Made by a program: the position numbers and the translations under genes. A stretch of 64,000 bases of DNA from Minisyncoccia bacterium (GTDB taxonomy: Bacteria; Patescibacteriota; Minisyncoccia; Phycocordibacterales; UBA9973): the NCBI GenBank assembly GCA_038323465.1, contig JBBQGX010000002.1:132-64131 (forward strand), read 5' to 3'. The notes below the pieces were generated by a model. It saw only the letters and a list, made by a program, of their open reading frames with translations, did no database searches and was not told the DNA's origin. How positions within the stretch are numbered: the first letter of the stretch is position 1; every line of letters begins with the position of its first letter. Shown here piece by piece: positions 14,446-60,639 of this stretch.

Positions 14446-14502
14446 AAGTAGTAGGCAGTAAGTAGTATGTAGTATATGAAAATGTAGTAAGTAGTATGTA
14501 TT
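14446..14502. repeat. 7-nt-periodic array, AAGTAGT type (about 8 units)
   Basis: aagtagt aggcagt aagtagt atgtagt atatgaa aatgtagt aagtagt atgtatt. Lies in the divergent region between the HTH gene and the giant gene. Confidence 0.6.
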
Positions 14503-20700: not shown

Positions 20701-23700
20701 GATACTTCAAATATTTCAGCAACAGTTCCATATTATGATATGTATATCGGATGGCAGGCAGCATCTATTAATGGTTTCTCATCATACAAATTAGAATACG
20801 CCACATCAAATGACAATATAAATTATGGAAGCTATACATCTATTTCAGACTCTGGACTTTCAACTTATTCTACTAACTACTATATTCATCGAAACCTAAC
20901 GCCTAATACTTTCTACCGTTATCGTCTAGGAGTTATTGGAACAAACGGGAATACAACAGTCAGATCGAATTCGTATATCACAACCAAGACTGATGGAGTT
21001 CAAAACTATGATGAAGGGGGAGGTGGCTCTGTGGCTACAGCTCCAAAAGTTGAGAATGTCGTCGCTACCCAAGGGGATGACAAACAAGTCTCTATCTCAT
21101 ACAAACTAACCGATATTTCTTTTACAAAAAAAGTTAATCCCTCATATGAATCATATTTGTTTTACAATATTGGTATCACACTCCCAACTAATCTATTAAC
21201 AGTGAATACTTTAGCAGTTTCAGATGCTTCTAAATTAAAATTATCAGGATATATTCTCGTTAACAATGAAGTCATTAAATATACTGGAATAACTGGCAAC
21301 AACCTAACGGGTCTTGTTCGGGGAACTTGGCCAGGTACCAGTGGACGTAGTACTAGAACCAACAATTCATTTTTCTCAGGGACCCCTGTTTGGATCCTCG
21401 CCTCTGGTACAACAAATATTTTAAATACCGAAACTGCTATCTCTGTTGGACAAATAGGAACAACAATTTGGAATACATACGAAGAACCAATCCTCGCTGG
21501 ATCAAGTTATCCAAATGTTGGAATTAAAATATTGGTTCATGACAATCAAGATGCACTTTCAGGACCACTTTCAAATCAAAATGATTTCTCAGAAAATGGG
21601 ATTATAAGTACTCTTGATCTAACTGCGCCAACTATTTCATTTAGTGTAATAGAGGCAACAGGAGCAGAAAGTGTCACACCCGTCTTACTGACTATCAATC
21701 TAGCTAGAGCCTACCCACAAGATACTACAGTCTCATATTCATTAACTGGTACTGCTACAAGTGCAGACTATACTTTGGCTAACGGCACGATTACCTTTAC
21801 AACAGGGGAAACAACGAAAGAAATATCAATTCCAATTATCAATGATTCTTTGAAAGAATTGGATGAGACTATCATTGTGACTCTATCAAGTCCTATCAAC
21901 GGAGTACTCGGCGCGGGTACTACATATACATATACTATTACCGACGATGATCAATTAGGTAATATTCAATTTACTAATACTTCATCAGAAAAAGGGGAAG
22001 CTAGTGTCACTCCTTTTGATATTGAAATATCACTTTCAGAAATTTCAGGAACAGATACAACTGTTTCGTATACTATAAGTGGGACTGCAACTAATGAAGA
22101 AGATTATACTTTAGTAGATGGAGTTGTTACCATTTTAGCTGGGGAGACAACAACTACTCTTACGATTCCTGTGATTAACGATACCTTAAAAGAAGAAGCG
22201 GAAACTGTGATTTTGACTCTCTCAAATCCAACCAATGCAACTCTCGGAGTAAATACAATTTATACTTATACTATTTTAGATGACGATAATTTAGCATTAA
22301 TCGGATTTGGGACAGCGACAAGTGAAGGCTTGGAATCTCTAACGCCCGTTAATATTCCAATTTCAATCTCCTCTATTTATCCAGAGGATATTAGTGTCTC
22401 ATATACAGTCGGAGGTGGAACTGCGACAGATGGTGGGATTGATTACACTTTATCAAACGGCATAGCGACAATTGTAAAAGGACAAACGATGACAACAATT
22501 CCGATCATTATTAACAATGATAAATTATCAGAAGAAAGTGAGACAATTATTATTACTTTAACTGACCTTATAAATGCTACTTTCGGAGATAATACAACAT
22601 TTACTTATACAATTTTAGATGATGAAATTGCCGTCAGTGAATTAGCTGGGACTAATGTTAAATCAACTTCAGCTCTGATCACTTGGAATACAGGAGACTT
22701 CGCGGGCTCAGTTGTTGAGTATGGAATAATTGCTCCTGAGATAGAAGGAGCATATAATTTGAAAAAAGAAAAAACAGAAAAAGTTCTCGGCCACCGTGTT
22801 TATCTCAGTGGATTAACACCATTAACAAAATATTACTTCAAATCTTCCTCAACTAATTTAGCTGGAGAAACAACTACATCTATATCTGATTTTACAACAA
22901 CTTCTGGCCCGGTTATCTCATCTGTTGCTCAAGGAATAATTACTGATACTGGAGTTACTGTTACTTGGGTAACAGACACGCCTTCTAATTCATATATTTC
23001 ATTTGGAATAGATGAAAATTTAATTGTTCCTAACAGAGCTGGTAATACAGAACTTGTAGTAGATCATACTGTAATTCTCTCTAATTTAGATTCAGAAAAA
23101 ACATACTACTATCTAATTCAATCAACAGATGAAGCCGGAGGAATCAGTGAAGATGCTAACGGAGGAACATTTTACAACTTTACAACAATCTCAGATGCAA
23201 CCGCTCCAATAGTTACAGATATCGCTACTCCAATCATCACTTCTGATTCTGTCGCTATTGTTTGGAAAACAAACGAACAATCAAATAGTCAGGTTCTCTA
23301 CAGTACAACGACAGGAGGGTACAATGAGAGTTCAACTCTAGGAGCAAATCAAGTACTCAATCACTTAGTCACAGTTGTTGGACTAACTCCAGAAACTACT
23401 TATTACTATGTCATTAAATCAGCTGACCAAAAGAGCAACTTAACTACAACAGAAGAGCAAACATTTAAAACAACTAAAGTCAAAGAAACAGTGATCTATT
23501 CAGGTGGGGGATCAGTGGGAGTTCTCCAATCAATATATGATTCTCTTTTAAAAGAGAATGAAGAAAATAAAATAAAATTAAAACTTCAAGATACAAATGC
23601 CCCAATTATTTCGAATGTAACAATATCAAATATTACTCCATTTAGTGTGACAGTTATGTTTGAGACGAACAAGGAGACGATAGCTTTTGTAAAATATGGA

Positions 23701-24921
23701 AAAGAAATATCATATGGAGATATTGCGGGAGATGATAATTTAAAAATTTCGCACTCAATAATACTTCGAGGTTTGACTATGGGTACGGAATACCATATCA
23801 AGGTTTCAGTTATGGATAAATTTGGAAACATTGGAACAGGAGAAGATCAAACCTTCAAAACCAAATACTTAACCGAAAAACTTGATGAACTTAAAAAGAT
23901 AGATAACATCGAACAATTCCAGAAAGAAATTGAAGCGACGATTGAATCAATCTTACCATCCCTTGTTCCTCCGTTTGTTGGTAAGCCAGAGGTTACAGAG
24001 ATCACAGAAAACAGTGCAAAAGTGAGCTTTAAAACAAACATTAAAGCCTTTCCAGTTGTAAACTATACTACTGAGATAGAGTACGATATCACTAAAGAAA
24101 ATCCATATAGTGGGGAAATCTCAGATACTACTACTAAAAATGTAAACCATACTTTACAAATCCTTGGTTTAAAACCTAATACAAAATATCACATCATGGC
24201 TAAAGCCTTCTCCCTCCCTCAGGTGATAGGTAAGTCAGATGATATAACTTTCATCACAGCAGCTTCCAAGATTCGTGGTTCTATTGTGGAAAAGAAAAAT
24301 GATTCATTTACCGTTGTTTGGAATACTGATACCCCAACTTCTTCAATCGTAGAATACAAAAATATTAAAACTGGAAAAACCTCTCGTTTGACAGATGATG
24401 CCAAGAATTATTCTCACTCAGTAAAAGTAGAGAATCTTACTCCTGGAACATCTTATGCTGTCCGAATTTCAGGTCTTAATATCGCTGGGAACATAGTAGA
24501 AGCAGGGGAATCAATCATGGTTAATACTGGCACTGATACTATTGCACCATCTATTGTGAGCTTCAAAGTAGATAGTGCTCTTGTCCTTGGACGAACAGAT
24601 CGTACTCAAACGATTGTCTCTTGGAAGACTGATGAACCATCCACATCTATAGTATATTTTGAAGAAGGCTCTGGTTCACCAGATAAAGCTCTTGTGAATA
24701 AGCAAGAAGACAATGAATTGACTATGAATCACGTCATGATGCTTACAACTCTTAAACCAGGAACGGTTTATCGTCTACAGGTTGTCTCTGTTGATGATGC
24801 TAATAATCAAACAAAATTACCAGTTAGAACAATTATTACCCCAAAGAGAACTGAGTCGATTGTGGATGTGATCTTCAAGAACTTTGATGAGACATTTAAT
24901 TTCATTAAAAATGTGAGGTAA
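14764..24921 (+). CDS. Giant (3385 aa) secreted/surface protein: Ig-like modules, three Asp-box beta-propeller arrays, four Calx-beta domains, about seven FN3-like domains
   Basis: A single uninterrupted ORF. The track start is TTG at 14764. The ATG at 14968 would give an N-terminal hydrophobic anchor/signal (TSAFFLFILVSFYFGLNKVEA). Repeats are listed as separate features. Confidence 0.9.
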   Translation: MRKTLFCKNKLESLKEKIPPKVEGGIFSFPSKDWIDNFLRFEKLSETDRDGKNEIIQTKILTTDQNKKMIKENKNKNIEGKIFLKNQISQIYKNSGILKTSAFFLFILVSFYFGLNKVEAVDTTSPDVNITYSENPVGATNEIITATYSEPITSAPTISINQPGTADVTNAPMIAPGSVWTPRLAAEANYWSSVTYGNGLFVAVASNGTNRVMTSPDGITWTARMAAEANSWNSITYGNGLFVAVASNGTNRVMTSPDGITWTARTAAEVNGWYSVTYGNGLFVSVSYNGTNRVMTSADGITWTARMAAEANQWMSVAYGNGLFVAVGSGGTNRVMTSPDGITWTARQTPEVNGWYFVTYGNGLFVSVSYGAASKIMTSPDGITWTVMSITSYYLTNITYAQGVFIALGQFGTLITSTDGITWNTRVCEYGSWNSVVYGNGSFVAVSSDVINRVMTSPVSYSYNYNVIIANGTNYLDGITTVSLSTTADAAGNISNPPTNNTFTIDTTGPTVALSYSANSVKAGNQVITATYSSPILGTPLISINQPGSIDISNASMSGSGVVWTYNYIVNTTNGNTYIDGISNVSLSIVTDATFHSSSLPTNNSFIIDTIAPIPTITQTSNPAKVGTNTITAKYLEALTNTPTINIDQPGTTDISNVTMNKTNMTGGWSIGSGGLQSSTWKSLIYGNGIYVAVSSDGTNRVATSTDPTLNIWSLQNVAESNNWQSVTYGNDQFVAVASSGTNRVMTSPDGITWATRTAVEANQWRSITYGNGIFVVVADSGTNRVMTSPDGITWTARSASSISSWYSVAYGNGQFVAVAYNGTDRVMTSPDGITWTSRTASATNSWQSVTYGNGQFVAVASSGSNLAMTSPDGIIWTGRSLGSSGWQAVTYGDGFFVAVGSNYKAISQDGISWQSSVSGYLFNSIIYNNGFFFAVGYGVHTFSPTSIYSYTYTVNQADGSTYVDGNANISLSTSTDLTGNTNTAPISSFRVDTTPPTTDITYSSNPADVGINTITANYSEPISSTPTISINQPGSIDIINASMVTPVSVWTPVSVPLSSWYSITYGNGLFVAVGGGINSVMTSSDGINWIIREGIIGKNWSSVTYGNGLFVAVGFSGVMTSPDGITWISRFGVTLSSVAFGNGLFVSINTSNGNIATSSDGITWTYRIIESSSQWNSIAYNNGLFAVVNNNGGVGGVRTSPDGINWTLRDSPSGNWRAINSGNGIFVAVGQGVVMTSLDGITWISRAGVSFGTWQSITYGNGLFVVVGDGGTNRVITSTDAITWTKRTASEANQWVSVTYGNGQFIAVSSSGTNRVMTSHSGYIYNYNVNKADGSTYVDGNATVSLSATVDLAGNPTEAPTGTTFAINTSNPTVALSYSSSLAKAGTNIITATYDKAVTSAPAISIDQPGITDITSVPMTGSGKVWTYSYNVNSANGSNYIDGVATVGLSTVTDAGGNTALSPTNEIFTIDTTSPNASITYLPNRPVKSGEALTITAELSEPLADTPILKIGITGVNTLVATDMTKIDSTHYSYIYTVGIGDGDATISLSMATDVVTNIVTSIPISGATFKIDNILPTGTIEAVCTTIGNGCIETGRIATPQESYQVGIIKGTASDEVGGTEVSTVAISIQDTTTNKWYSGTSFTDASDTYLNTTGTITWSYNFSSVPLIIDHIYLINIKITDGATNTKIIPLSFKFTNSPPVVSNVTASQALGGGIVSVTYDVTDIESSQTTNSLFYSVGTTLTGVITDSASSLIVSDGTNFPTTGTILIGDEMIGYTKSGNNFTITRGVLSTTAFSHTTGSPIYIKAVTTVGTGIGLSNKGTGKTISWNAQTEAIDYESLTGVIKVVANDGAAGSMIGSLDSTPFIIDAAAPIPSAPLTFDAGTAGIAGSATITIPMPTDISAIEYKISDDANIETNVNTTGWVTITGSTTIPWTFDSDIELKNLKLQFRDAYGNTTVEETISTQTPIPSSSFLVQDTSNISATVPYYDMYIGWQAASINGFSSYKLEYATSNDNINYGSYTSISDSGLSTYSTNYYIHRNLTPNTFYRYRLGVIGTNGNTTVRSNSYITTKTDGVQNYDEGGGGSVATAPKVENVVATQGDDKQVSISYKLTDISFTKKVNPSYESYLFYNIGITLPTNLLTVNTLAVSDASKLKLSGYILVNNEVIKYTGITGNNLTGLVRGTWPGTSGRSTRTNNSFFSGTPVWILASGTTNILNTETAISVGQIGTTIWNTYEEPILAGSSYPNVGIKILVHDNQDALSGPLSNQNDFSENGIISTLDLTAPTISFSVIEATGAESVTPVLLTINLARAYPQDTTVSYSLTGTATSADYTLANGTITFTTGETTKEISIPIINDSLKELDETIIVTLSSPINGVLGAGTTYTYTITDDDQLGNIQFTNTSSEKGEASVTPFDIEISLSEISGTDTTVSYTISGTATNEEDYTLVDGVVTILAGETTTTLTIPVINDTLKEEAETVILTLSNPTNATLGVNTIYTYTILDDDNLALIGFGTATSEGLESLTPVNIPISISSIYPEDISVSYTVGGGTATDGGIDYTLSNGIATIVKGQTMTTIPIIINNDKLSEESETIIITLTDLINATFGDNTTFTYTILDDEIAVSELAGTNVKSTSALITWNTGDFAGSVVEYGIIAPEIEGAYNLKKEKTEKVLGHRVYLSGLTPLTKYYFKSSSTNLAGETTTSISDFTTTSGPVISSVAQGIITDTGVTVTWVTDTPSNSYISFGIDENLIVPNRAGNTELVVDHTVILSNLDSEKTYYYLIQSTDEAGGISEDANGGTFYNFTTISDATAPIVTDIATPIITSDSVAIVWKTNEQSNSQVLYSTTTGGYNESSTLGANQVLNHLVTVVGLTPETTYYYVIKSADQKSNLTTTEEQTFKTTKVKETVIYSGGGSVGVLQSIYDSLLKENEENKIKLKLQDTNAPIISNVTISNITPFSVTVMFETNKETIAFVKYGKEISYGDIAGDDNLKISHSIILRGLTMGTEYHIKVSVMDKFGNIGTGEDQTFKTKYLTEKLDELKKIDNIEQFQKEIEATIESILPSLVPPFVGKPEVTEITENSAKVSFKTNIKAFPVVNYTTEIEYDITKENPYSGEISDTTTKNVNHTLQILGLKPNTKYHIMAKAFSLPQVIGKSDDITFITAASKIRGSIVEKKNDSFTVVWNTDTPTSSIVEYKNIKTGKTSRLTDDAKNYSHSVKVENLTPGTSYAVRISGLNIAGNIVEAGESIMVNTGTDTIAPSIVSFKVDSALVLGRTDRTQTIVSWKTDEPSTSIVYFEEGSGSPDKALVNKQEDNELTMNHVMMLTTLKPGTVYRLQVVSVDDANNQTKLPVRTIITPKRTESIVDVIFKNFDETFNFIKNVR
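15296..16140 (+). repeat. Asp-box (BNR) propeller blade array 1, ~132-nt period
   Basis: Blades W-x-S-V-T-Y-G-N-G-L-F-V-A-V...N-R-V-M-T-S-P-D-G-I-T-W-T contain S-x-D-x-G-x-T-W. Adjacent blades (for example 15350-15440 versus 15480-15570) are nearly identical at the nucleotide level. Confidence 0.8.
16762..17600 (+). repeat. Asp-box propeller blade array 2
   Basis: Same blade consensus (YGNGQFVAVASSGTNRVMTSPDGITWT) repeated about 6-7 times. Confidence 0.8.
17905..18730 (+). repeat. Asp-box propeller blade array 3
   Basis: Same blade consensus with more divergent blades (TSSDGINW, TSPDGITW, TSLDGITW, TSTDAITW). Confidence 0.75.
21631..22630 (+). repeat. Four tandem Calx-beta domains
   Basis: Four units of roughly 80-95 aa of the type V-S-Y-x-x-x-G-T-A-T-x-x-x-D-Y-T-L-x-x-G-x-x-T-F...I-x-I-I-N-D-x-L-K-E-x-x-E-T-I-I-x-T-L-S-x-P. 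Confidence 0.75.
22631..24840 (+). repeat. About seven FN3 / purple-acid-phosphatase-N-like domains
   Basis: Recurrent pattern S-A-x-I-x-W-x-T-x-x-P-x-x-S-x-V-x-Y-G...H-x-V-x-L-x-G-L-x-P-x-T-x-Y-Y-Y. Confidence 0.65.
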
Positions 24922-28067: not shown

Positions 28068-29792
28068 TTGAAAATGAAGCTAGAAACTAAGAAATGCCAG
28101 AATTGTAATCATGATTTCACGATTGAACCAGAGGATTTTCTTTATTATGAGAAGATTAAAGTTCCAGCTCCGACTTTTTGTCCGGAGTGTCGAATGATAA
28201 GACGTATGATATGGCGTAATTGCAGGTCACTTTTCAAGAGAGCCTGTGATAGTTGTAAAAAGTCAGTTATCTCTATGTATAGCGAAGAGAGAACTAAAAA
28301 AGTCCACTGTATGGACTGTTGGAATTCTGATGACAGAGACCCTTTTATTTATGCTCGCCCATATGATTTCACTAGAAACTTCTTTGTTCAGTTAAAAGAA
28401 TTGCATGGAGAATGTCCGATTCTCTATGTTCATCATACGGGAACTCTAATACGATCAGAGTTTACAAATTATAGTCTTGATAATAAAGATTGTTATTTGT
28501 CTTACTCTGTTTTAGGATGTGAAGATGTTTTGTATTCTGAAATAATAGATAAATCTAAAAATAGTATGGACTGCTATGCAGTACAAAAAGTTGAGAACTG
28601 CTCGTACAATATTGATTGCGATACAAATTACAATAGTCATTTTGCTGTAAAATCACAAAAATGCATAGATTCATTTTTCGTTTATGATTGTAGTAATTGT
28701 CAGAATTGTTGCTTGTCGTACAATTTGCGCAACAAACAGTATGTATTTAAAAATAAAAAATTAACAAAAGAAGAATATGAAAAAGAAGTTTTAAAATTAT
28801 CACTCGATACATATTCTGGTTTTAAGGAAGCCCAGAAAGATTTTGATGACATTTTAAAAAATAAAGCGATTCATAGATTTGCTCAGGTTTATGGTTCACA
28901 AAATGCAATGGGGGATTATATTGGTAATTCAAAAGATGTATACAATTCTTTTGATGTTCAAAATTCTGAAAATATTCGATATACAGTGAGATCCATTGCT
29001 AATTCTAAAGACTGCTATGATAATCAAGGAATCGCTTCTGGTGAATTGATATATGAATCAATTGCAACAAGTTTTGGAACCTATAAAGATTATTTTACTT
29101 ATATATGTGTAGGGTCAAAAGAATGCGAGTATTCTTTTATGTGTAAAAATTGTTCGCATTGTTTTGGTTGTTCAGGATTAAAGAATTCGCAATACTGTAT
29201 TTTCAATAAACAATACGATAAAGACGAATATTTCAAAATGGTAGAGAAAATAAAAATACAAATGAGTGCAATACCTTATATTGATATCAAGGGAAGGGTT
29301 TATAAGTACGGCGAACTATTTCCTTATGAAATGTCTCCTTTTGGATACAATGAGACAAATGCGCATGATAATTTTCCTCTAACAAAAGAGCAAGCCTTTT
29401 TAAAGGGCTATCCATGGAAAGAAAAAGAAGAAAAAAATTACAATATAACGATAGAATCTAGAGATTTACCAGATGATATTAAAGAAGTTACTGACATTAT
29501 CCTTGATGAAGTCATCGCTTGTCCAAATAATGGAGACCAGAGGTATCAATGCACCACCGCTTATCGTATTATTGCTGAAGAATTGCAGTTTTATAGACAA
29601 AAAGGCTTACCCTTACCTAGATATTGTCCTAATTGCAGGCATTATCAGAGGTTAGAATATAGAAATCCTGTTAAATTGTATACTCGTTCATGCATGAAAA
29701 GTGGTTGTGCTAATACTTTCTCCACAACTTATGCCCCGGTACGTTCCGAGAAAGTGTTTTGTGAGAATTGCTATCAAAAAGAGGTACTTTAG
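28068..29792 (+). CDS. Cys-rich multi-zinc-ribbon protein, paralog 1 of 3 (uncharacterised family)
   Basis: The track start is TTG at 28068; the ATG at 28074 is more likely. Shares with 36321-38108 and 38137-39846 the N-terminal CxNCxxxFxIEPEDFxFYEK...PxPTxCPxCRxxRR, two internal Cys-rich modules ending N-K-x-Y-x-K-E-E-Y, and the C-terminal CxxC...CPxCR...YCExCYQxE. Confidence 0.8.
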   Translation: MKMKLETKKCQNCNHDFTIEPEDFLYYEKIKVPAPTFCPECRMIRRMIWRNCRSLFKRACDSCKKSVISMYSEERTKKVHCMDCWNSDDRDPFIYARPYDFTRNFFVQLKELHGECPILYVHHTGTLIRSEFTNYSLDNKDCYLSYSVLGCEDVLYSEIIDKSKNSMDCYAVQKVENCSYNIDCDTNYNSHFAVKSQKCIDSFFVYDCSNCQNCCLSYNLRNKQYVFKNKKLTKEEYEKEVLKLSLDTYSGFKEAQKDFDDILKNKAIHRFAQVYGSQNAMGDYIGNSKDVYNSFDVQNSENIRYTVRSIANSKDCYDNQGIASGELIYESIATSFGTYKDYFTYICVGSKECEYSFMCKNCSHCFGCSGLKNSQYCIFNKQYDKDEYFKMVEKIKIQMSAIPYIDIKGRVYKYGELFPYEMSPFGYNETNAHDNFPLTKEQAFLKGYPWKEKEEKNYNITIESRDLPDDIKEVTDIILDEVIACPNNGDQRYQCTTAYRIIAEELQFYRQKGLPLPRYCPNCRHYQRLEYRNPVKLYTRSCMKSGCANTFSTTYAPVRSEKVFCENCYQKEVL

Positions 29793-32461: not shown

Positions 32462-32473
32462 TTTTTGGTTACG

Positions 32474-32542
32474 CAGAAACATGAAATTTTTCCCGCTTTA
32501 CCCCAAAGGGGCCCTACACGGATAAAAATTTTCATGTTTCTG
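32474..32542 (+). other. Palindrome with conserved 33-nt GC-rich central core (copy 1)
   Basis: Arms cagaaacatgaaattttt and aaaattttcatgtttctg. Core cccgctttaccccaaaggggccctacacggata at 32492-32524 is 32/33 identical to 53208-53240. Confidence 0.85.
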
Positions 32543-32558
32543 TTTCACCATTTTATTT

Positions 32559-33077
32559 ATGAAAAAACAAATTAAATATATAATAGTCTTTTTATCTGTC
32601 TTTGCGATTAGACTTGTGCCATTTCGTGCTCCAAATGTGGAGCCAATAATGACAGTGGTTATGCCTTTTGGAAAAGTTTACGGAGGGTTATATTCCTTTG
32701 CCTTTGGTTTCTTCAGTATTGTGTTTTTTGATTCTATTACGTCAGGATTTGGTGTCTGGACTCTTGTGACAGCTCTTTCTTATGGTGCGCTAGGATTAGG
32801 AGCTAACTATTATTTCAAAAATAGATCAGGACGTGTAAATTATGCTATATATGCAGTTGTCGCTACTATATTTTATGATGCTATTACAGGACTTACTATT
32901 GGACCACTTTTCTTTCATCAATCATTTATGGTTTCTTTGATTGGACAGATTCCTTTTACTGCTCTTCACTTGCTAGGTAATGTATCTTTTGCTATAGTAC
33001 TCTCACCAGTGATAGAAAAGTGGTTAGTTAAAGAAGAAAAGTTAGTTACTGTGGGTAAAGTTGTGCTGGTAAGTTAG
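32559..33077 (+). CDS. Small (172 aa) 5-6 helix membrane protein, possibly a vitamin-uptake (ECF S-component-like) protein
   Basis: Entirely hydrophobic, with the N-terminal motif RLVPFRAPNVEPIM. The function is suggested only by position between the B12-dependent RNR and the cobalamin riboswitch operon. Confidence 0.35.
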   Translation: MKKQIKYIIVFLSVFAIRLVPFRAPNVEPIMTVVMPFGKVYGGLYSFAFGFFSIVFFDSITSGFGVWTLVTALSYGALGLGANYYFKNRSGRVNYAIYAVVATIFYDAITGLTIGPLFFHQSFMVSLIGQIPFTALHLLGNVSFAIVLSPVIEKWLVKEEKLVTVGKVVLVS

Positions 33078-33098
33078 TTGTATTTTAAAATTTAAATT

Positions 33099-33184
33099 AA
33101 TGTATTTGGAAGTGAGGTTAAATTCCTCCACTGTGCCGCAACGGTAATACCCCGAAAAGGGGATAAGTCCGGTCTTAATACATT
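33099..33184 (+). promoter_or_regulatory. Cobalamin riboswitch aptamer (short form lacking the long peripheral extension)
   Basis: P1 aatgtatt/aatacatt. Core TGGAAGTGAGGTTAAATTCCTCCACTGTGCCGCAACGGTAA matches the conserved GGGAA..GGTG.AA.TCC..C.G..CCGC.AC.GTAA block. Followed by AAGTCCGG (compare AAGCCAGGA). The downstream genes are DUF4430-type B12 binders. Confidence 0.7.
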
Positions 33185-33227
33185 GATGTTTCCCGAGCAG
33201 GAGAATATCTCTAAAATATTTAGACAT

Positions 33228-33276: not shown

Positions 33277-33780
33277 ATGATAAAGAAAAATAAAAAGATA
33301 TTAATAGGAATAGGATTAATTTTAATAATTATTTCTGGATTTCTATTTTTGAATAGAGAAAAACAAATACCCACAACTACTCTATTAGAGAAAAGTTATA
33401 GTCAAGAAAAAATAGACAAAGGAATACAAATCCCCAGTCAGAAGATAAAAAAAATAGAAACGCTGTCCCAACTAGAAAATGTTAAAAGAATTAAAGTATC
33501 GTTAATTTTAAAAGATAAAACATATAATACTGAAATTAAAGAAGGTAGTTCTGTTTTTGAAACCATGTTAAATATTGAAAAAGAAAGTACAAAAGAAAAT
33601 CAATTTAGTTTTAAATATATAGAAAATTTAGGAATGGGGAGTTTTGTAAATGAAATAAATGGGGTGGTCGGTTCTCCAGGGGCCTATTGGATATATTATG
33701 TGAATGGTAAAGAAGCAGGAATAGGAGTGTCGAAATATATATTAAAAGAGGGGGATATTATTAATTGGAAACAAGAATAA
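33277..33780 (+). CDS. Membrane-anchored DUF4430 (transcobalamin beta-domain-like) protein
   Basis: N-terminal TM helix. C-terminal GSFVNEINGVVGSPGAYWIYYVNGKEAGIGVSKYILKEGDIINW fits the DUF4430 pattern. Confidence 0.7.
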   Translation: MIKKNKKILIGIGLILIIISGFLFLNREKQIPTTTLLEKSYSQEKIDKGIQIPSQKIKKIETLSQLENVKRIKVSLILKDKTYNTEIKEGSSVFETMLNIEKESTKENQFSFKYIENLGMGSFVNEINGVVGSPGAYWIYYVNGKEAGIGVSKYILKEGDIINWKQE

Positions 33781-33784
33781 AAAA

Positions 33785-35329
33785 ATGAAAAACAAAATTT
33801 TAATAATTACATTTACAATATTATCACTTTTTATTTTTAATTTTGCTTATGCAGATACTAATATTCATTTGCAGATTAAAACGACAACAGATTTATTTAA
33901 TCAAACCATTACTGTTGCTTCGTGTGATAGTGATAACGATATAGTAACTCCCGATCTGACAACTCCTTATTGTGCTATAAAGAACAAGACATCATTGCAA
34001 AATGATTGGTCTTTTGGAGAATTTGGAGCATTTTTAAATTCACTTAATAATATTTCAGGATCTACAACAAAAGATAAAGATGGCAATCCCGTCTATCACT
34101 ATTGGAGTTGGTCTTTAAATAATGAGATGGCGATGGAAGCTCTAAATGTGTATCAATTAAAAGAAAATGATTCTATCTTGTTGGAATTTATTGATCCACA
34201 AGAACCAACTCCATTGCCTGAAGTCTTGAAAGAACCCACTCATATTTCTCATTCTTCTGGTGGTTCATATGTAACGCAAGTTAAAAAAGTAGTATTTGAT
34301 GTTAATAAAGCAATTGAGTTTTTGTTATTAAATCAAAAAAAAGATGGATCCTTTGCTTCACCGATGTATACAGATTGGGTCGCTATTGCTCTTGGTGCTA
34401 TCGATAATTCAACATTAAAATCAAACATTTTAAATTATTTAAAATCCAATCCAATCCAATCATCTCTCCTTACTGATTACGAGAGACGTGCTATGGCCCT
34501 TTTGGCACTCGGTGTAAATCCTTATGATGGAACAGAAGTAAATTATATTAAAAAAATTATTGAAAGTTTTGATGGAGTACAATTTGGTGATGCGACTATG
34601 ATCAATGATGATATCTTTGCTTTGGTTGTACTGCAAAATGCTGGTTATCATATAAATGATGAAATAATTAAAAAAGATGTTACTTATATTATTTCTAAAC
34701 AAGAGAAAAATGGTGGATGGGGGAGTGTTGATATGACTTCCGCGGCGATCATGTCGATAAAGGAATTCAAAGATATCTCTGGCACCTCAGAGAGTCTCAA
34801 GAATGCAGAGAATTATTTGATTGGAGAAAAAAAATCAGATGGAGGATTTTCGAATTCTTTTTCCACTTCTTGGGTTTTGCAAAGCTTATCAGATGATAGT
34901 AGATTTATAAATGCTGAAGAATATTTAATAAAAAATCAACAAGCAGATGGAGGATTTGAAGATGTTTCATCTGATATAAATACTAGAGTTTGGGCGACGG
35001 CTTACGTTTTACCTGCTATTTTACATAAATCGTGGAATGATATTTTAGTTGATTTTCCAAAACAAGTAGAAAAAGAAAAGACTGATAAAATTATAGAAAG
35101 TATTTTTATTCCTTCATCTCTCGAAGTGGTGATAAAAAAGACTCCACGTAATAATTCTAATTTAACTATTACTAAAACTCCTGTCATAATAGAAATTATT
35201 GAAAATCAAAATCAAAATCAAAATCAAAAAGAGAATCAGAATATCTTTAAAATTAAGGAAGTTTCTAATTTTAAACGTACATGGAAAGCTATTAAATCAC
35301 CATTTGTTTGGCTTTGGTATCGGCTTTAA
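33785..35329 (+). CDS. Secreted protein: DUF4430-like domain followed by a prenyltransferase/terpene-cyclase-like alpha/alpha toroid (permuted transcobalamin-like)
   Basis: Signal peptide. HYWSWSLNNEMAMEALNVYQLKENDSILLEF is DUF4430-like. Then repeats KDGSFASP..DW, KNGGWGS, SDGGFSNS..TSW and ADGGFED typical of alpha/alpha toroids. Confidence 0.6.
   Translation: MKNKILIITFTILSLFIFNFAYADTNIHLQIKTTTDLFNQTITVASCDSDNDIVTPDLTTPYCAIKNKTSLQNDWSFGEFGAFLNSLNNISGSTTKDKDGNPVYHYWSWSLNNEMAMEALNVYQLKENDSILLEFIDPQEPTPLPEVLKEPTHISHSSGGSYVTQVKKVVFDVNKAIEFLLLNQKKDGSFASPMYTDWVAIALGAIDNSTLKSNILNYLKSNPIQSSLLTDYERRAMALLALGVNPYDGTEVNYIKKIIESFDGVQFGDATMINDDIFALVVLQNAGYHINDEIIKKDVTYIISKQEKNGGWGSVDMTSAAIMSIKEFKDISGTSESLKNAENYLIGEKKSDGGFSNSFSTSWVLQSLSDDSRFINAEEYLIKNQQADGGFEDVSSDINTRVWATAYVLPAILHKSWNDILVDFPKQVEKEKTDKIIESIFIPSSLEVVIKKTPRNNSNLTITKTPVIIEIIENQNQNQNQKENQNIFKIKEVSNFKRTWKAIKSPFVWLWYRL
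35203..35226 (+). repeat. (AAATCA)4 in-frame hexanucleotide repeat encoding NQNQNQNQ
   Basis: Four perfect tandem units inside 33785-35329. Confidence 0.9.
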
Positions 35330-35726: not shown

Positions 35727-36287
35727 ATGCCAGCATACGTAGAAACAATTAATAAATTATTATCTCTTGGAACAATATTCCTTCAGGTAGTTATTGTATC
35801 TATTTTGATTGGGCTTGTTTTCTTTCGAACAAGAGAAAATCCATATTTATTATTTTTCAAAAAATATACCTTTATCTTCGGTTTTCTTTCAGGATTGGGA
35901 GCATTTCTGCTTTCACTGTTTTATTCTGAAATAGTTGGATTTCCTGCATGTGAACTTTGTTGGATACAAAGAATCTTTTTATATCCACAACTGATTTTAT
36001 TTGGGATGGAATTATATAAACGAGATAGATCCATCGTTGATTTCTCTATAGTCTTTGCAAGTATCGGATCACTTGTCTCTATCTATCATGTGTATGTAGA
36101 GAATGGGGGAACTGGTGGACTCTCATGTGCAACAGGTACAAGTCTAGCCACCTCTACTGGAGCTTCTTGTTATGTTCGATATATATATGAATTTGGATAT
36201 ATTACTATGCCAATAATGGCCCTCACCCTATCACTCTTTATAATAACTATTTTGGTGAACTATAAATATATGGCGAGGGTTAAATAA
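35727..36287 (+). CDS. dsbB: Disulfide bond formation protein DsbB/BdbC family
   Basis: Four helices. CELCWIQRIFLYP matches the BdbC-type CxxCWxQR motif. A second Cys pair lies in the later loop. Confidence 0.8.
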   Translation: MPAYVETINKLLSLGTIFLQVVIVSILIGLVFFRTRENPYLLFFKKYTFIFGFLSGLGAFLLSLFYSEIVGFPACELCWIQRIFLYPQLILFGMELYKRDRSIVDFSIVFASIGSLVSIYHVYVENGGTGGLSCATGTSLATSTGASCYVRYIYEFGYITMPIMALTLSLFIITILVNYKYMARVK

Positions 36288-36320
36288 TTACTAATTACCA
36301 ATTACTGATTACTAATTAAA
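36288..36320 (+). repeat. Heptamer array TTACTAA TTACCAA TTACTGA TTACTAA TTAAA filling the dsbB-to-paralog-2 spacer
   Basis: Starts at the base after the TAA and ends at the base before the ATG at 36321. Confidence 0.8.
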
Positions 36321-38108
36321 ATGAATAATTCACCTGAAATCAGAAATTGCCAAAACTGCAAAAATGACTTCATTATTGAGCCAGATGATTTTTTGTTTTA
36401 TGAGAAACTTTCTATCTCTGCTAAATATAAAATTCCAGCCCCTACATGGTGTCCAGATTGTAGATTTCAAAGAAGATGCCTTTTTCGTAATGAAAGAAAA
36501 TTGTTTAAAAATATTGATGGTGCCACCAATAAAAATATAATTAGTTTATTCCCCAAAGAAGCAAAATTTCCAGTATATGATGATAGTTACTGGTTTAGTG
36601 ATAATTGGGACCCGTTTTCATATGGTGTAGATTTTGACAGATCAAGACCTTTTCTTTCTCAGCTATATGATTTAATACTTAAAGTTCCTCACCCTAGATC
36701 AAATTCTATAAACATGATAAGGAGTGATTATTCAGCTAATGCGGCAGATTTGAAAGACTGCTATTTGATTTTCAGTGCAACTTCAACCGAGAATTCTGCT
36801 TATGGAAATGCTGTTGATTATTGTAAAAATTGTTTTGATAACTCTCATATAAGTAATTCAGAAAAATGCTATGAGTCTTTTTGGTTAAATAAATGTTACG
36901 ATACACACTTCTCATCTTCTTGTGAAGAATGTATGTCTGTATGTCTTTCTAAAAATTGCGTTGGGTGCTTGAATTGTTTTGGTTGTGTAAATTTGAGAAA
37001 TAAATCTTATAACTTTTTTAATCAACAATTAACAAAAGAAGAATATATAGAAAAAATAAATTCTTTAGATATTTCAAAGTGGTCAAATCTAAAAAAAACA
37101 AACAAAACTGCAAAAGAATTTTGGGTTAAATTTCCAGTTAAGTGTATTCAGGGAACAAAAAACTATGACTGTTCTGGTGAATATATTTCTAATTCAAAAA
37201 ATGTTAAAAATGGTTATTTAATAAGAGGTGGAGAAAATTTAAAGTATGTTCATTACGGGCAAGTTCCAGTTCTAAGAGATAGTATGGATATGATGATTGG
37301 TGGATTAAATAGTGAATTGATTTATGAAGCTGTTACATGTGGATGGAATTCTTCACAAATTCGCTTTTGTTATGAATGCTGGGACGGAGGAATAGATTTT
37401 GAATATAGTATGTTTTGCGGAAAGAAAGCTAGTCATGTTTTTGGGGGTGTTAGTGTAAATAGTGGGGATTATGTAATTTTAAATAAAAGATATTCTAAAG
37501 AAGAATTCTATAAACTTCGTGACGAAATACGTAAGCATATGGATGAAATGCCATATATAGATGCTAATGGAAGAGTATATACATACGGTGAATTTTTTCC
37601 ACCTGAATTTTCACCATTTGCTTATAGAGACACAATAACACCAGAACATTTTCCGTTATCAAAAGAAGATATATTATCTTATGGTGCTAAGTGGTACGAA
37701 GTTCCACAAAATGAATATAATGTTTCAATAAAATCAGAAGATATACCAGATGATATTAAAGATGTAGATGATAGTATTCTTAATGAAATAATTTCTTGTG
37801 AAAAATGTAAGCGTGCTTATAAAATAATTCCAGAAGAATTGCAATTTTTAAAACAAAACAATTTACCATTACCACACTTTTGTATAAATTGTAGGCATGA
37901 TATACGTATTAACCAAAGGAACAAAAGTAAATTATATAAGAGAGAGTGTGATTGTAATGGGGATTGTTCATTAAATAATAAATACAATAATACGATTGAG
38001 CATTTCCACGGTAAAGATAAGTGTACCAATATATTTGAAACCTCATATGCACCAGATAGGCCGGAGATTATTTATTGTGAGAAGTGTTATCAACAGGAAG
38101 TAATGTAA
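36321..38108 (+). CDS. Cys-rich multi-zinc-ribbon protein, paralog 2 of 3
   Basis: Same architecture as 28068-29792. The second N-terminal CxxC pair is lost (NIDGATNKNIISLF). Confidence 0.8.
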   Translation: MNNSPEIRNCQNCKNDFIIEPDDFLFYEKLSISAKYKIPAPTWCPDCRFQRRCLFRNERKLFKNIDGATNKNIISLFPKEAKFPVYDDSYWFSDNWDPFSYGVDFDRSRPFLSQLYDLILKVPHPRSNSINMIRSDYSANAADLKDCYLIFSATSTENSAYGNAVDYCKNCFDNSHISNSEKCYESFWLNKCYDTHFSSSCEECMSVCLSKNCVGCLNCFGCVNLRNKSYNFFNQQLTKEEYIEKINSLDISKWSNLKKTNKTAKEFWVKFPVKCIQGTKNYDCSGEYISNSKNVKNGYLIRGGENLKYVHYGQVPVLRDSMDMMIGGLNSELIYEAVTCGWNSSQIRFCYECWDGGIDFEYSMFCGKKASHVFGGVSVNSGDYVILNKRYSKEEFYKLRDEIRKHMDEMPYIDANGRVYTYGEFFPPEFSPFAYRDTITPEHFPLSKEDILSYGAKWYEVPQNEYNVSIKSEDIPDDIKDVDDSILNEIISCEKCKRAYKIIPEELQFLKQNNLPLPHFCINCRHDIRINQRNKSKLYKRECDCNGDCSLNNKYNNTIEHFHGKDKCTNIFETSYAPDRPEIIYCEKCYQQEVM

Positions 38109-38136
38109 ATGTAATAAGTAATAAGTAATAAGTAAT
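38109..38136 (+). repeat. Heptamer array ATGTAAT (AAGTAAT)x3, inverse orientation of the TTACTNA arrays
   Basis: Exactly fills the 28-nt spacer between the stop at 38106-38108 and the ATG at 38137. Confidence 0.8.
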
Positions 38137-39846
38137 ATGGAATACAAATCACAAACTAAAAATTGCCAAAACTGCAAAAATGACTTCATTATTGAGCCAG
38201 AGGATTTTTCTTTTTATGAAAAGATGAAGGTTCCTCCACCTACTTTTTGCTCAGAGTGTCGGGTTATACGAAGATTTTCTCACCAGAACACCTGGAATTT
38301 ATTTTGGAGAAAATGTGATAAATGTGGTGAGAAAACTTTATCTATGTATTCTCCTGATCAAGAATTAAAAGTTTATTGTCAGCCTTGTTGGTGGAGTGAT
38401 TCTTGGGATGGTACAGAATTTGCCATGGACTATGATAAATCCAAACCATTTTTAGAACAAATAAGAGAGCTTATATCTAAAACCCCTTATGTTTCATTAA
38501 ATAACCTTTACCTACTGAATAAAAATTGTGACTATGTAAATAGCGCTGGTCAATGCAAGGATTGTTTTATGATTTTTTGGGCTGATTTTTGTGATACCGT
38601 ATATTATTCAACATTGTTAAACACTTTAAAGTATAGTTCTGATTGTATTCGGGGATATTTTTCTGAGCTTTGCTATGAATCAATAGGTTTTAGTAGATGC
38701 TATAAGACATTTTTCTCTGAAGAGTGTGATGATTGTATAGATGTTTGGTTTTCTAAGAATTGTTATAACTGCACTAACTGTATTGGTTGTGTGAACATGC
38801 GAGGTGAATCAAATTGTATTTTTAATATAAAATATACAAAAGAGGAATATTTAGAAAGAGTTCAAGAATTGAATTTAGGCTCATGGAAAAGTTTAAATGA
38901 ATTAAAGGTAAAAGTAAAAGAATTTTGGTTTTCAAAACCAGTTCGAGATTTTCATACTCATTCATTAAGTGTGAATGTGTCAGGGGACTATGTGTATGAG
39001 TCAAAAAATTCAAAAGAAATGTATATTAGTAATGGAGCTGAAGATTGTAAATATTGTCAGTTTATAACAGTTGAGTCAGCTCGAGATTGTTTTGATTATT
39101 CAGGGTGGGGAGATAATGCAAATCAGATTTATGAAGGAATAACAATTGGAAATAATTCTAGTTTGGTACTTTTTTCTTTTGAATGTTGGCCAGATAGTTT
39201 AGATTTAGAATATTGTTATTGGAATATCTCTGGTAAGAATAATCTAGGGTGTGTTAATTTAAAAAGAAAACAATATTGTATTTTAAATAAAAAATATAAA
39301 AAAGAAGAATATGAAAAATTAAAATCAGAAATTATTGAAGACATGAAAATTAATCCTTATGTAGACAAAGCAGGGAATAAATATTTTTATGGGGAATTTT
39401 TTCCAACAGAATTTTCTTGTTTTCCATACAATAAGTCAAATGCAATGAGGTTTTTTAAAAAAGAAAAAACAGAAGCAATTAATATGGGATGTGCTTGGTC
39501 AGATACAGAAAATCAAAACCACCAAACAACCATAGAATCTTTCAATCTGCCTGATAAAATAATTGAAACAAATGATTCTATACTAAAAGAGATAATTAGT
39601 TGTTCAAAATGTAAACGTGCTTATAAGATAGCAGAAGGAGAACTTGGTCTTTTAAAAAAAATGGGATTACCGATTCCTCATGAATGTCCAAAATGCCGTG
39701 AGAATGAAAGATTCTTAAAATTAGATCCCATAAAACTATACAATAGGAATTGTAATAAGTGCAGTAAAGAAATAAATACACCATATGGACCAAACAGACC
39801 AGAGATAATATATTGTGAGAAATGTTATCAGCAGGAATTTATTTAA
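38137..39846 (+). CDS. Cys-rich multi-zinc-ribbon protein, paralog 3 of 3
   Basis: Same architecture. Positions 38160-38201 are identical over 42 nt to 36344-36385 in paralog 2. Confidence 0.8.
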   Translation: MEYKSQTKNCQNCKNDFIIEPEDFSFYEKMKVPPPTFCSECRVIRRFSHQNTWNLFWRKCDKCGEKTLSMYSPDQELKVYCQPCWWSDSWDGTEFAMDYDKSKPFLEQIRELISKTPYVSLNNLYLLNKNCDYVNSAGQCKDCFMIFWADFCDTVYYSTLLNTLKYSSDCIRGYFSELCYESIGFSRCYKTFFSEECDDCIDVWFSKNCYNCTNCIGCVNMRGESNCIFNIKYTKEEYLERVQELNLGSWKSLNELKVKVKEFWFSKPVRDFHTHSLSVNVSGDYVYESKNSKEMYISNGAEDCKYCQFITVESARDCFDYSGWGDNANQIYEGITIGNNSSLVLFSFECWPDSLDLEYCYWNISGKNNLGCVNLKRKQYCILNKKYKKEEYEKLKSEIIEDMKINPYVDKAGNKYFYGEFFPTEFSCFPYNKSNAMRFFKKEKTEAINMGCAWSDTENQNHQTTIESFNLPDKIIETNDSILKEIISCSKCKRAYKIAEGELGLLKKMGLPIPHECPKCRENERFLKLDPIKLYNRNCNKCSKEINTPYGPNRPEIIYCEKCYQQEFI

Positions 39847-39909: not shown

Positions 39910-39976
39910 TAATAGGTAATAGATAGTAAGTAGTAAGAAAAAGTCGGGATTATTATTAATAAAATTTTTTTATAAT

Positions 39977-40402
39977 ATGCTTTACGAAAAAATAGAAAAA
40001 GATGAAAAGGATATTGTTTTTGTTTATACCACTTTTCGCGATGAGGTGGGAGCGAGGTCAGTAGGGTATTTGGCTATTGAAGATAAGCTTGCTATCTCTG
40101 CGGATTACTGGTTGATCAATTCTATATATCCATGGCAAGGAGTTGTCCAAGAAGCAGGGCAGTGTATGCTCATGTTTACAACGGAAAAATTGTTAAGCGA
40201 AGAGTTGGTGAAGTTTATTGAATCAAATCATCCTTACAATGTACCGATGGTGATAAGGAGTAATACTTCACTTGTAAATCAAGCCTATAAACTTTGGGTT
40301 GACAATACACTTGAGTCAGATAAAAAATATATAACAGAAGAAGAAAATGAATTGAATATAGAAAAAGCAAGTGAAGGGTATGGGTATGGGAGACTTAAAT
40401 AA
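39977..40402 (+). CDS. cutA: CutA1-like divalent-cation tolerance protein with C-terminal extension
   Basis: VFVYTTF...KLAISADYWLINSIYPWQGVVQEAGQCMLMFTT...SNHPYNVPMVI matches the CutA pattern (S-x-Y-x-W-x-G...HPY-x-x-P). Confidence 0.7.
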   Translation: MLYEKIEKDEKDIVFVYTTFRDEVGARSVGYLAIEDKLAISADYWLINSIYPWQGVVQEAGQCMLMFTTEKLLSEELVKFIESNHPYNVPMVIRSNTSLVNQAYKLWVDNTLESDKKYITEEENELNIEKASEGYGYGRLK

Positions 40403-40437
40403 TTACCAATTACCAATTACTAATTAACAATTAATAA
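40403..40437 (+). repeat. Heptamer array TTACCAA TTACCAA TTACTAA TTAACAA TTAATAA
   Basis: Begins at the base after the cutA-like stop codon. Confidence 0.8.
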
Positions 40438-40440
40438 TGT

Positions 40441-40472
40441 AAAATGCCTCGGCTTTGCCGAGGCATTTTAGT
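40441..40472 (+). terminator. Rho-independent terminator
   Basis: aaaatgcctcgg-ctttg-ccgaggcatttt, a 12-bp perfect stem whose right arm ends in a T run. Confidence 0.8.
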
Positions 40473-40493
40473 TATTAGTAATTACTATATTGC

Positions 40494-53200: not shown

Positions 53201-53266
53201 AATTCTCCCCGCTTTATCCCAAAGGGGCCCTACACGGATAAGAATTTTATATCTTGTCCTCTTTTC
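53181..53266 (+). other. Perfect 26-bp inverted repeat with conserved 34-nt GC-rich central core (copy 2)
   Basis: Left arm gaaaagaggacaagatataaaattct (includes the comEC stop at 53198-53200). Core ccccgctttatcccaaaggggccctacacggata at 53207-53240. The right arm at 53241-53266 is the exact reverse complement of the left arm. Confidence 0.9.
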
Positions 53267-53278
53267 TATCTGCTAATT

Positions 53279-60085: not shown

Positions 60086-60130
60086 GTAAAAGGGGCAGAC
60101 TGAAAGTCTACCCCTTTACTTGCTTTTTTT
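60086..60130 (+). terminator. Terminator upstream of rpsL
   Basis: aggggcagac-tgaaa-gtctacccct (one mismatch), followed by ttgcttttttt. Confidence 0.6.
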
Positions 60131-60185
60131 GGGTCTTTATAGTAAAGTATTTGGACTAGTCATTCGTGACTTTTTTAATTTAAAT

Positions 60186-60611: not shown

Positions 60612-60639
60612 TTACCTATTACTGATTACTAATTACTAA
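60612..60639 (+). repeat. Heptamer array TTACCTA TTACTGA TTACTAA TTACTAA in the rpsL-rpsG spacer
   Basis: Begins at the base after the rpsL TAA and ends 6 nt before the rpsG ATG. Confidence 0.8.

Follow-up and report, generated by a model that had tools for sequence, protein, structure and literature searches.

The short tandemly repeated repetitive (STRR) heptamers of heterocystous cyanobacteria were reportedly described by Mazel et al. in 1990, and intergenic repeats with a seven-nucleotide unit have since been noted elsewhere in bacteria. Mrazek (2007) found long simple sequence repeats (LSSRs) with units of 5–11 nt, among which heptanucleotides are over-represented in many bacteria, and polymerase slippage was proposed as the cause of the heptamer excess, as summarized in PMC4679880 and PMC4692102. 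Heptanucleotides of Calothrix PCC 7601 are mentioned in PMC4692102, as are the GGGAATC and GGGGAYT heptamers of Xanthomonas and Nostoc, which are G-rich and capable of forming G-quadruplexes. In Candidatus Maribeggiatoa, MacGregor (2015) described 169 sets of two to six TAACTGA units, nearly all intergenic, most of which end about 1 nt before start codons lacking a ribosome-binding site, including those of fusA and ribosomal proteins L3, S4, and S1; these repeats also occur in some Cyanobacteria and Bacteroidetes, and their proposed function, binding of S1, a cold-shock protein (Csp), or CsrA, is unproven (PMC4679880). In Nostoc, deletion of heptamer repeats near recF and recO alters reporter output, according to a preprint (bioRxiv 10.1101/2022.06.06.494920). 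Here, we describe a family of heptanucleotide arrays, with the unit TTACYRA or its complement, in a 64-kb stretch of a Patescibacteria (candidate phyla radiation, CPR) genome (assembly GCA_038323465.1, contig JBBQGX010000002.1, positions 132 to 64,131; hereafter, the window). The original prediction, which was made from the sequence of the window, knew of no described element of this kind; in that respect it was not right, as intergenic heptanucleotide tandem repeats had already been described (PMC4679880, PMC4692102), and the arrays belong to that class, with a new unit and in a new phylum. A limited literature search found no description of such repeats in Patescibacteria.

There are four strong arrays and two weaker ones (Table 1), all of which had been listed in the original prediction and are present as described, together with the palindrome at 40477–40486. 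At the four strong sites, Tandem Repeats Finder (TRF) reports period 7 with 3.9–4.9 copies and 79–100% matches, and all period-7 arrays of the window that are not low-complexity share one core family. Five bases are constant, ATTAC or, in complement, GTAAT (GTAGT in the weak arrays), with two variable bases after them. Each of the three arrays of ATTAC sense can be read as (YRA-TTAC)n, with the TAA stop of the upstream gene serving as the first YRA; AAA-TAA-TTAC is found at 36285, 40400, and 60609. The AAGTAAT type of the 38109 array is the complement orientation of ATTACTT, and its 7-nt periodicity extends back into the final codons of the upstream gene, GAA GTA ATG TAA (38105–38136). The arrays had been said to fill their spacers exactly, and this holds for those at 36288 and 38109, whereas the 60612 array does so nearly but not exactly, leaving ATAAAT. 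Stop codons in all three frames had also been anticipated, and every array does contain at least one in each of the three sense frames. An ATG, GTG, or TTG is found within the 38109 array only, as the ATG of an ATG-TAA start-stop pair directly 3′ of the stop at 38106–38108 (38106–38114, TAA ATG TAA TAA G...); the repeat may have produced this minimal pair by chance. The 14446 array is a less certain member of the family than the others.

Table 1. Heptanucleotide arrays and associated features; coordinates are positions in the 64-kb window, and gene identities are from Pfam
Feature	Position	Strand	Sequence	Repeat statistics or source	Setting
36288 array	36288–36320	+	TTACTAA TTACCAA TTACTGA TTACTAA TTAAA		Entire 33-nt spacer from the DsbB stop (gene 35727–36287, Pfam DsbB) to the ATG at 36321
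36288 array with stop	36285–36320	+	DsbB stop TAA, (TTACYRA)×4, truncated TTAAA	TRF period 7, 4.9 copies, 85% matches	Stops in all three frames on both strands
38109 array	38109–38136	+	ATGTAAT, AAGTAAT ×3	TRF period 7, 3.9 copies, 100% matches	Entire 28-nt spacer between two paralogous genes (stop ending at 38108, next ATG at 38137)
40403 array	40403–40437	+	TTACCAA ×2, TTACTAA, decayed TTAACAA, TTAATAA	TRF 4.7 copies, 88% matches	Abuts the CutA1 stop TAA at 40400 (Pfam CutA1); 3′ untranslated region, adjoining no start codon; next start 93 nt away
60612 array	60612–60639 (element 60609–60645)	+	TTACCTA TTACTGA TTACTAA ×2, then ATAAAT	TRF period 7, 4.4 copies	34-nt rpsL-rpsG spacer; rpsL stop TAA at 60609
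39914 array	39914–39937	+	Degenerate AGGTAAT AGATAGT AAGTAGT (GTART type, weaker)	GTARTNN ×3 with one mismatch	130-nt spacer preceding cutA, with 39 nt between array and ATG
14446 array	14446–14502	+	Weak AAGTAGT / ATGTAGT type, period 7/14	TRF 61–71% matches; GTARTNN ×3 with one mismatch	407-nt divergent region between a MerR-family gene (14087–14356, minus strand; Pfam MerR) and a 3385-aa open reading frame (14764–24921)
Intrinsic-terminator-like hairpin	40440–40470	+	14-bp stem, 7 GC pairs	Terminator scan	Directly 3′ of the 40403 array
Inverted partial repeat copy	about 40471–40486	+	GTTATTAGTAATT...	Sequence; minimum-free-energy and centroid structures	Overlaps the palindrome
Palindrome	40477–40486		AGTAATTACT	Present in sequence	

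That a 7-nt family recurs in both orientations, and in short spacers of unrelated operons, is borne out by the sequence and by comparison with shuffled controls, a check that had been proposed along with the prediction. With at most one mismatch, ATTACNNATTACNNATTAC has 10 matches at 4 sites in the window against 0.01 expected from dinucleotide-preserving shuffles, and for the looser GTARTNNGTARTNNGTART (GTARTNN ×3) the shuffles predict 0.07 matches whereas 14 are seen, distributed over 6 sites. Coding sequence, nearly all on the + strand, takes up about 92% of the window, which has ~32% G+C, and the non-coding share of ~5.2 kb (8%) holds all six arrays. The 60612 array is unchanged in an independent Logan contig (L001) and the 40403 array in another assembly (L222), and homologous arrays are found in assemblies of other samples (L122–L125).

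Among the described systems, the TAACTGA repeats of Beggiatoaceae are the closest match. Both occur as two to six tandem copies in sets interrupted by related 7-mers, almost all intergenic and some inside ribosomal-protein operons, with stop codons in the unit and little predicted RNA structure. In the TAACTGA system one favored unit recurs at many loci of a genome and related heptamers are seldom repeated; the single core family of the 64-kb window may point to a similar preference. Like the TAACTGA sets, the arrays at 36288, 38109, and 60612 end 0–8 nt before an ATG that lacks a Shine-Dalgarno (SD) sequence, although the 40403 array does not fit this pattern, and TTACTGA, one of the units used here, is a single substitution from TAACTGA. 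In contrast to the strict TAACTGA unit, the TTACYRA unit of the arrays varies at two positions outside a fixed ATTAC core and is represented by TTACTAA, TTACCAA, TTACTGA, TTACCTA, and AAGTAAT. Unlike the "forward" TAACTGA repeats, they precede starts in both orientations within one co-directional cluster (ATTAC sense at 36288, GTAAT sense at 38111); moreover, one array stands beside a stop codon and a terminator, and the host is a member of the Patescibacteria with a genome of ~32% G+C.

The similarity to the cyanobacterial STRR sequences is also considerable, as these too are intergenic tandem heptanucleotides with several unit families, a copy number that varies between strains, and no established function, and Cyanobacteria dominate the carriers of (ATTACNN)×4 (at least 64 among the matches listed; see below). 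The STRR sequences differ in having other units, mostly of higher G+C, and arrays that are often much longer and composite, and they are not noted for a stop-to-start position in tight operons. With the LSSRs of Mrazek and the heptamers of Xanthomonas and Nostoc the arrays share the over-representation of period 7, the intergenic location, occasional inverted pairs, and the same flanking genes from one related species to the next, though length and sequence vary; unlike the G-rich repeats of Xanthomonas and Nostoc, they are AU-rich and predicted to be unstructured. Tandem copies in excess of composition, copy number that changes by whole units, intergenic location, and over-representation of period 7 place them in the LSSR/STRR class. 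Phase-variation (contingency) repeats, which sit in a reading frame or promoter spacer and turn a gene on or off as units are gained or lost, are a poor comparison, with the arrays lying outside reading frames and predicted promoter spacers and adjoining housekeeping genes (rpsG, the DsbB cluster, and CutA). Nor do they resemble repetitive extragenic palindromes (REP) or bacterial interspersed mosaic elements (BIME), whose imperfect palindromes of about 20–40 nt fold into a stable hairpin downstream of a stop codon, as the three spacer-filling arrays fold no better than shuffled sequences and only the 40403 array joins a hairpin.

The rpsL-rpsG spacer could be compared across many relatives (here given as L-numbered loci), and it holds a variable number of units. 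Following the rpsL TAA, there are four units in the window, five in L122/L123 (TTACTGA TTACTAA TTACTAA TTACCAA TTACTAA, then AA), and four in L124/L125 (TTACTGA TTACTAA TTACCAA TTACTAA, then AAT); the difference between L122 and L124 is exactly one TTACTAA unit. In L126–L131, L143–L145, and L223–L228 the spacer is 17–22 nt long with about three decayed units (e.g., TTACTAAATTACGAATTTAAAT), and L147 has two units plus one decayed (TTACGAA TTACGAA TTAAAAA). L132–L135 and most other relatives have a repeat-free, AT-rich spacer of 2–13 nt, and the arrays are missing from the more distant relatives. Other repeats have been gained in this same spacer in L167, L193, L204, and L219, and 9-mers are present in L183 and L186. 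Around dsbB, the paralogs, and cutA, the relatives found via the paralog protein have other neighbors, and the paralog-paralog junction alone is comparable. It reads "...gaagtgtat TAA t ATG gaatacaaatca" in relatives L138/L139, with a 1-nt spacer, and "...gaagtaatg TAA (28-nt array) ATG gaatacaaatca" in the window; because the junction is only 1 nt long in these relatives, the 38109 array is an expansion into a former 1-nt junction.

Since relatives hold five, four, about three decayed, or no units, and one junction is a single nucleotide in a relative, the arrays are lineage-specific expansions that change by whole units. The variation in unit number among orthologous spacers had been put forward in the original prediction as something to look for, and the whole-unit differences between relatives support the last of the roles that it listed without deciding among them (a spacer or standby element for re-initiation, a protein-binding array, or a slippage-prone microsatellite). 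The ancestral spacers were 1–13 nt long, and an expansion therefore becomes the spacer, which explains the exact filling. We also considered that the array had replaced the 3′ end of the DsbB gene, and rejected this: the AAATAA end is ancestral, and L128 ends in AAATAA without an array.

As RNA, the arrays are AU-rich, nearly G-free (or C-free), and stop-rich, and those that fill spacers have no predicted structure beyond that of shuffled sequences. The predicted minimum free energy is −5.8 kcal/mol for the 36288 array (z −0.06, no more structured than shuffles), −0.4 kcal/mol for the 60612 array (z +0.72, unstructured), and −0.6 kcal/mol for the 38109 array (z +1.68), which is less structured than 194 of 200 shuffles. 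The 14446 array has a z of −2.95 and folds better than 199 of 200 shuffles. At the 40403 array, the segment 40390–40500 folds with −30 kcal/mol (z −5.95), and in the predicted fold the inverted partial copy pairs with the last units of the array to form a longer terminator stem. An attenuator- or riboswitch-like reading was dropped because the start-proximal arrays are predicted to be unstructured, and an Rfam search of the whole window at gathering thresholds gave no match to a known RNA family at the arrays.

The nearest relatives of the S7 protein encoded in the window are from Candidatus Paceibacterota, Pacebacteria, and Nomurabacteria, which places the genome in the Patescibacteria (Paceibacteria/Nomurabacteria-like). 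As the original prediction had remarked of a genome without SD sequences, an SD-like 4-mer is present at −20 to −3 in just 2 of 44 genes of the window, compared with 11% of random 18-mers, and the 20 nt before starts are 84% A+T. TATAAT-like boxes lie just 5–12 nt before many ATGs (e.g., 2407, 39977, 40531, 47609, and 49584), which, with the near-absence of SD sequences, suggests that the first genes of operons may be transcribed as leaderless mRNAs in this lineage. A scan of the window for sigma-70-type promoters gave 41 promoter-like matches where shuffles give 34 ± 6, with the two array-overlapping matches reaching just 9 of 12; promoter function of the arrays was rejected, as there is no sigma-70-type signal above background there. 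An alternative genetic code, suspected when fusA was missing from the list of open reading frames, was also rejected; with table 11 the fusA frame stays open up to the window end, beyond which it continues. In a separate observation, the region upstream of rpsL (~60120–60185) is kept in L122, L124, L126, and L132 while their other intergenic DNA is unalignable; it contains TTGCTTTTTT and then TATAGTAAAGT, a promoter-like pair, followed by an ACTAGTC...GACTA inverted repeat in a leader of ~50 nt, which may be a ribosomal-protein leader or regulatory hairpin.

Period 7 predominates in this lineage. Among 91 non-redundant related loci (752 kb), and with arrays defined as at least four units with at least 85% lag identity and low-complexity runs excluded, there are 21 arrays of period 7 against 0.05 expected from shuffles, and 5, 1, 0, 4, 0, and 0 arrays of periods 5, 6, 8, 9, 10, and 11, respectively; the 21 include some double counts and near-duplicate loci, with ~15 being distinct. 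These heptamer arrays are mostly intergenic, and many end 0–8 nt before an ATG. The units vary among lineages and even within one contig (TAGGCNN, CTAAAAC, CTAAAAA, CTATAAG, TTCTAAG, TTATTAG, AGTAGCA, and others), which suggests a process that is specific for the period rather than for the sequence.

We lean toward the interpretation that the arrays are slippage-generated heptanucleotide microsatellites, tolerated as unstructured, AU-rich, and stop-rich linkers; both slippage as the generator and the passive role are what we infer from the whole-unit differences, the period, and the lack of predicted structure. A short seed beside a stop codon (TAA-TTAC...) would be duplicated, and strand slippage in replication would then lengthen or shorten the array by whole 7-nt steps, a step that bacterial replication seems to favor. 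The survivors would be limited to gene junctions and become the whole spacer, because a 7-nt unit bearing TAA or TGA cannot sit inside a gene, and because the genome is ~92% coding with junctions of 1–13 nt. There the arrays would be harmless, since open, AU-rich, and stop-rich RNA is of little consequence in a genome that does not use SD pairing; they are probably at most passive open linkers, from which ribosomes could start on the next cistron.

Several observations weigh against slippage and tolerance as the full account. One core (ATTAC/GTART) recurs at four to six independent sites in 64 kb, which blind slippage on random seeds does not predict. The ATTAC-sense arrays of the window, L122, and L124 together depart from TTACTAA 14 times, with 12 of these changes at positions 5–6 and none in the TTA (positions 1–3) or in the final A. 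The rpsL-rpsG arrays of L122 and L124 have perfect cores and a common unit order (TGA, TAA, (TAA), CAA, TAA), and the window shares the run TGA, TAA, TAA with them. These lineages have just 55–62% identity at 4-fold degenerate sites, which we estimate as roughly one substitution per neutral site, and at that distance the 3′ flank of rpsG is unalignable, with only the rpsL promoter and leader being conserved; the kept cores look like the outcome of purifying selection or of active maintenance. Of the four strong arrays, three are in formerly tiny junctions internal to operons, and ~5 kb of longer intergenic DNA has only one. Finally, no length variation was seen within the population, in a comparison of two short Logan contigs (SRR19962012) that apparently come from one population and are both identical to the window; exact-protein look-ups made for this purpose gave contigs from that one run only. 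Core recurrence, confined variation, and core retention therefore leave room for a selected cis-element.

To see how widely the core occurs, one genome per species was scanned for exact (ATTACNN)×3-ATTAC, yielding at least 120 loci (L002–L121). The matches listed are from Cyanobacteria (at least 64), Bacteroidota (at least 27), Chloroflexota (at least 9), Planctomycetota/Verrucomicrobiota (at least 7), Acidobacteriota (at least 4), Proteobacteria (at least 3), CPR (at least 2), Firmicutes (at least 1), and other or unclassified bacteria (at least 3), and this skew agrees with the distribution that MacGregor gave for TAACTGA. The following also refers to the matches listed. ATTACGA is the commonest unit outside of Cyanobacteria and recurs across phyla. 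The arrays often abut stops or starts, in either orientation; heptamer arrays with other units, of which these loci contain at least 205, are frequent neighbors, and inverted pairs also often occur; the order stop, array, 50–120 nt, inverted array, and start is seen in L081, L095, and L103. Both flanking genes are on the array strand in 37 cases and on the opposite strand in 37. A rule placing the ATTAC sense after stops and the GTAAT sense before starts was rejected, all four combinations of orientation and gene end being populated. A general architecture of a 5-nt core plus two variable positions was rejected too, with mismatches in 381 arrays spread as at random (0.48–0.50 against 0.49–0.51), although this analysis is noisy because composite arrays get merged.

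The alternative that fares best is a cis-element kept by selection, which would help to translate the internal cistrons of a genome lacking SD sequences by serving as a landing or scanning pad ahead of the start codon. Ribosomal protein S1, a cold-shock-domain protein, or another abundant factor that binds single strands would read the array in 7-nt register and keep the start open or recruit ribosomes. Cold-shock-domain proteins have a site size of 6–7 nt. We consider this explanation rather unlikely but give it real weight. In its favor, the core and the array are retained over about one substitution per synonymous site, only two unit positions vary, and the rpsL-rpsG spacer has gained tandem arrays of different units in L147, L167, L193, L204, and L219. 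Three of the four strong arrays end 0–8 nt before an SD-less ATG, many heptamer arrays of the related lineages end 0–8 nt before an ATG, and the start-proximal RNA is predicted to be unstructured. The (ATTACNN)×4 matches are concentrated in Cyanobacteria and Bacteroidota, both SD-poor phyla (at least 64 and at least 27 of the matches listed, against 3 in Proteobacteria and 1 in Firmicutes). A role of this kind has likewise been proposed for the TAACTGA repeats (PMC4679880), and the reporter effects of heptamer-repeat deletion in Nostoc point the same way (bioRxiv 10.1101/2022.06.06.494920).

However, both orientations precede starts in one co-directional cluster (AUUACNN at 36288 and GUAAUAA at 38111), which disfavors a single RNA-level reader because one RNA-binding specificity cannot read both; across the other phyla, too, array orientation relative to the flanking genes is unbiased among the matches listed. 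The 40403 array adjoins a stop and a terminator at a distance of 93 nt from the next start, and close relatives translate rpsG from repeat-free spacers of 2–13 nt. The units also differ widely among related genomes, and no candidate factor was identified.

Two further explanations are improbable. In the first, a nucleoid-associated or regulatory protein would recognize the arrays as duplex DNA, occupying successive heptads whichever way they are oriented. The known example is a ribbon-helix-helix protein, the omega repressor of plasmid pSM19035, which binds WATCACW heptads in promoter regions, and the arrays are similar to its sites in having consecutive 7-bp units, direct or inverted, with a conserved core and degenerate edges. 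A core of 5 bp plus 2 variable bp in 3–5 direct and inverted repeats, its conservation between lineages, the inverted partial copy near the 40403 array, and the spacing, with three heptads making 21 bp or two helical turns, would all be accounted for. Unlike the omega heptads, though, the arrays lie inside operons between a stop and a start, with no promoter predicted above background; no ribbon-helix-helix or other candidate gene is linked to them, the regulators encoded in the window are of ArsR, MerR, and sigma types, none of which adjoins a strong array, and the many different units of related genomes would require many different binders.

In the second, which we rate as quite improbable, the arrays are copies of one small element spread by template switching, gene conversion, or a transposase-like activity. 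The segments 36275–36319 and 40390–40434 are 87% identical over 45 nt, including 13 nt of unrelated upstream coding sequence (GAGGGTTAAATAA and GAGACTTAAATAA), the variant units TAA, CAA, and TGA recur across all ATTAC-sense sites, and AAA-TAA-TTAC opens all three of these arrays. Yet the common upstream flank is short and AT-rich and so could be shared by chance, the AAATAA end of DsbB is ancestral (L128 again ending alike without an array), no transposase, terminal repeat, or target duplication was seen, and other genomes have several different units. Resemblances to IS608-type TTAC targets, to the GTAG motifs of REP sequences, and to the ACUAAY motif of eukaryotic STAR proteins were set aside, no supporting feature such as a transposase or hairpin ends being seen. 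Lastly, an origin by chance from the AT-rich composition, or through faulty assembly, is scarcely credible: the low G+C and the many low-complexity A/T repeats listed by TRF could suggest it, but it is refuted by the shuffle controls (10 and 14 matches where 0.01 and 0.07 are expected) and by the same or homologous arrays in independent assemblies.

Other features of the window are as follows. An adenosylcobalamin (AdoCbl, B12) riboswitch at 33081–33213 (Rfam RF01482, 61 bits) is the only Rfam match at the gathering threshold; it is downstream of an energy-coupling factor (ECF)-transporter S-component-like gene (32559–33077) and upstream of two DUF4430/cobalamin-binding-like genes (33277–35329), beyond which is the thioredoxin-DsbB cluster. 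Three paralogs of a Cys-rich protein of ~590 aa (28068–29792, 36321–38108, and 38137–39846) have more than 4000 homologs at E-values of 0.001 or below in many CPR phyla, those listed having no precomputed Pfam domain, and one paralog has a C-terminal match to a treble-clef zinc finger (PF23477). The 3385-aa open reading frame flanking the 14446 array contains many 123-nt (41-aa) repeats, and one of 975 aa (56130–59057) has 51-nt (17-aa) repeats of NTTGxxNTANG type and is followed by another large, secreted-looking open reading frame; we take the two repeat-containing products to be cell-surface proteins, which are common in CPR genomes. At 576–648 and 1699–1771 there are two 84%-identical copies of a non-coding element of ~73 nt (...TTCAGTTNGTTTNTTTANCCNTTNAATTTAGGGTTATTGTAGG...GATAGGAGTTGAACTA), one before a META-domain gene (680) and the other before an open reading frame at 1901; it has no Rfam match at the gathering threshold and may be a shared leader or small RNA. 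The motif CCGCTTTAYCCCAAAGGGGCCCTACACGGATAA, a small dispersed repeat, is common to the 3′ intergenic regions 32462–32558 (after a ribonucleotide reductase gene) and 53201–53278 (after a gene ending at 53200). Open reading frames 10129–11007 and 11035–11613, along with the translated "intergenic" segment 11614–12004, appear to be pieces of one ABC-transporter-like gene, a break that points to a frameshift, to a pseudogene, or to an error in sequencing.

Heptanucleotides are the most over-represented class of longer tandem repeats in bacteria. The present case is a tractable one, as the genome is tiny, SD-less, and largely of leaderless type, and the arrays form whole intercistronic spacers, including that between rpsL and rpsG. 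For this essential operon the relatives provide a graded series of repeat-free, decayed, four-unit, and five-unit spacers, and this series, together with cores conserved where synonymous sites are nearly saturated, makes the question of neutral versus selected arrays testable. If the arrays are only tolerated products of slippage, then the finding is an ordinary one, and its main use is to caution annotators against taking such spacers for regulatory sites. A bolder proposal, which we offer tentatively and consider unlikely, is that heptad arrays genuinely signal translation without SD sequences in Patescibacteria, and likewise in Cyanobacteria, Bacteroidota, and Beggiatoaceae, being kept by selection and read by a factor with a 7-nt footprint. 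If so, that factor would load or hold ribosomes at the internal cistrons of polycistronic mRNAs, the intact ATTAC cores would reflect selection, and the concentration of the arrays in SD-poor phyla would be cause rather than coincidence.

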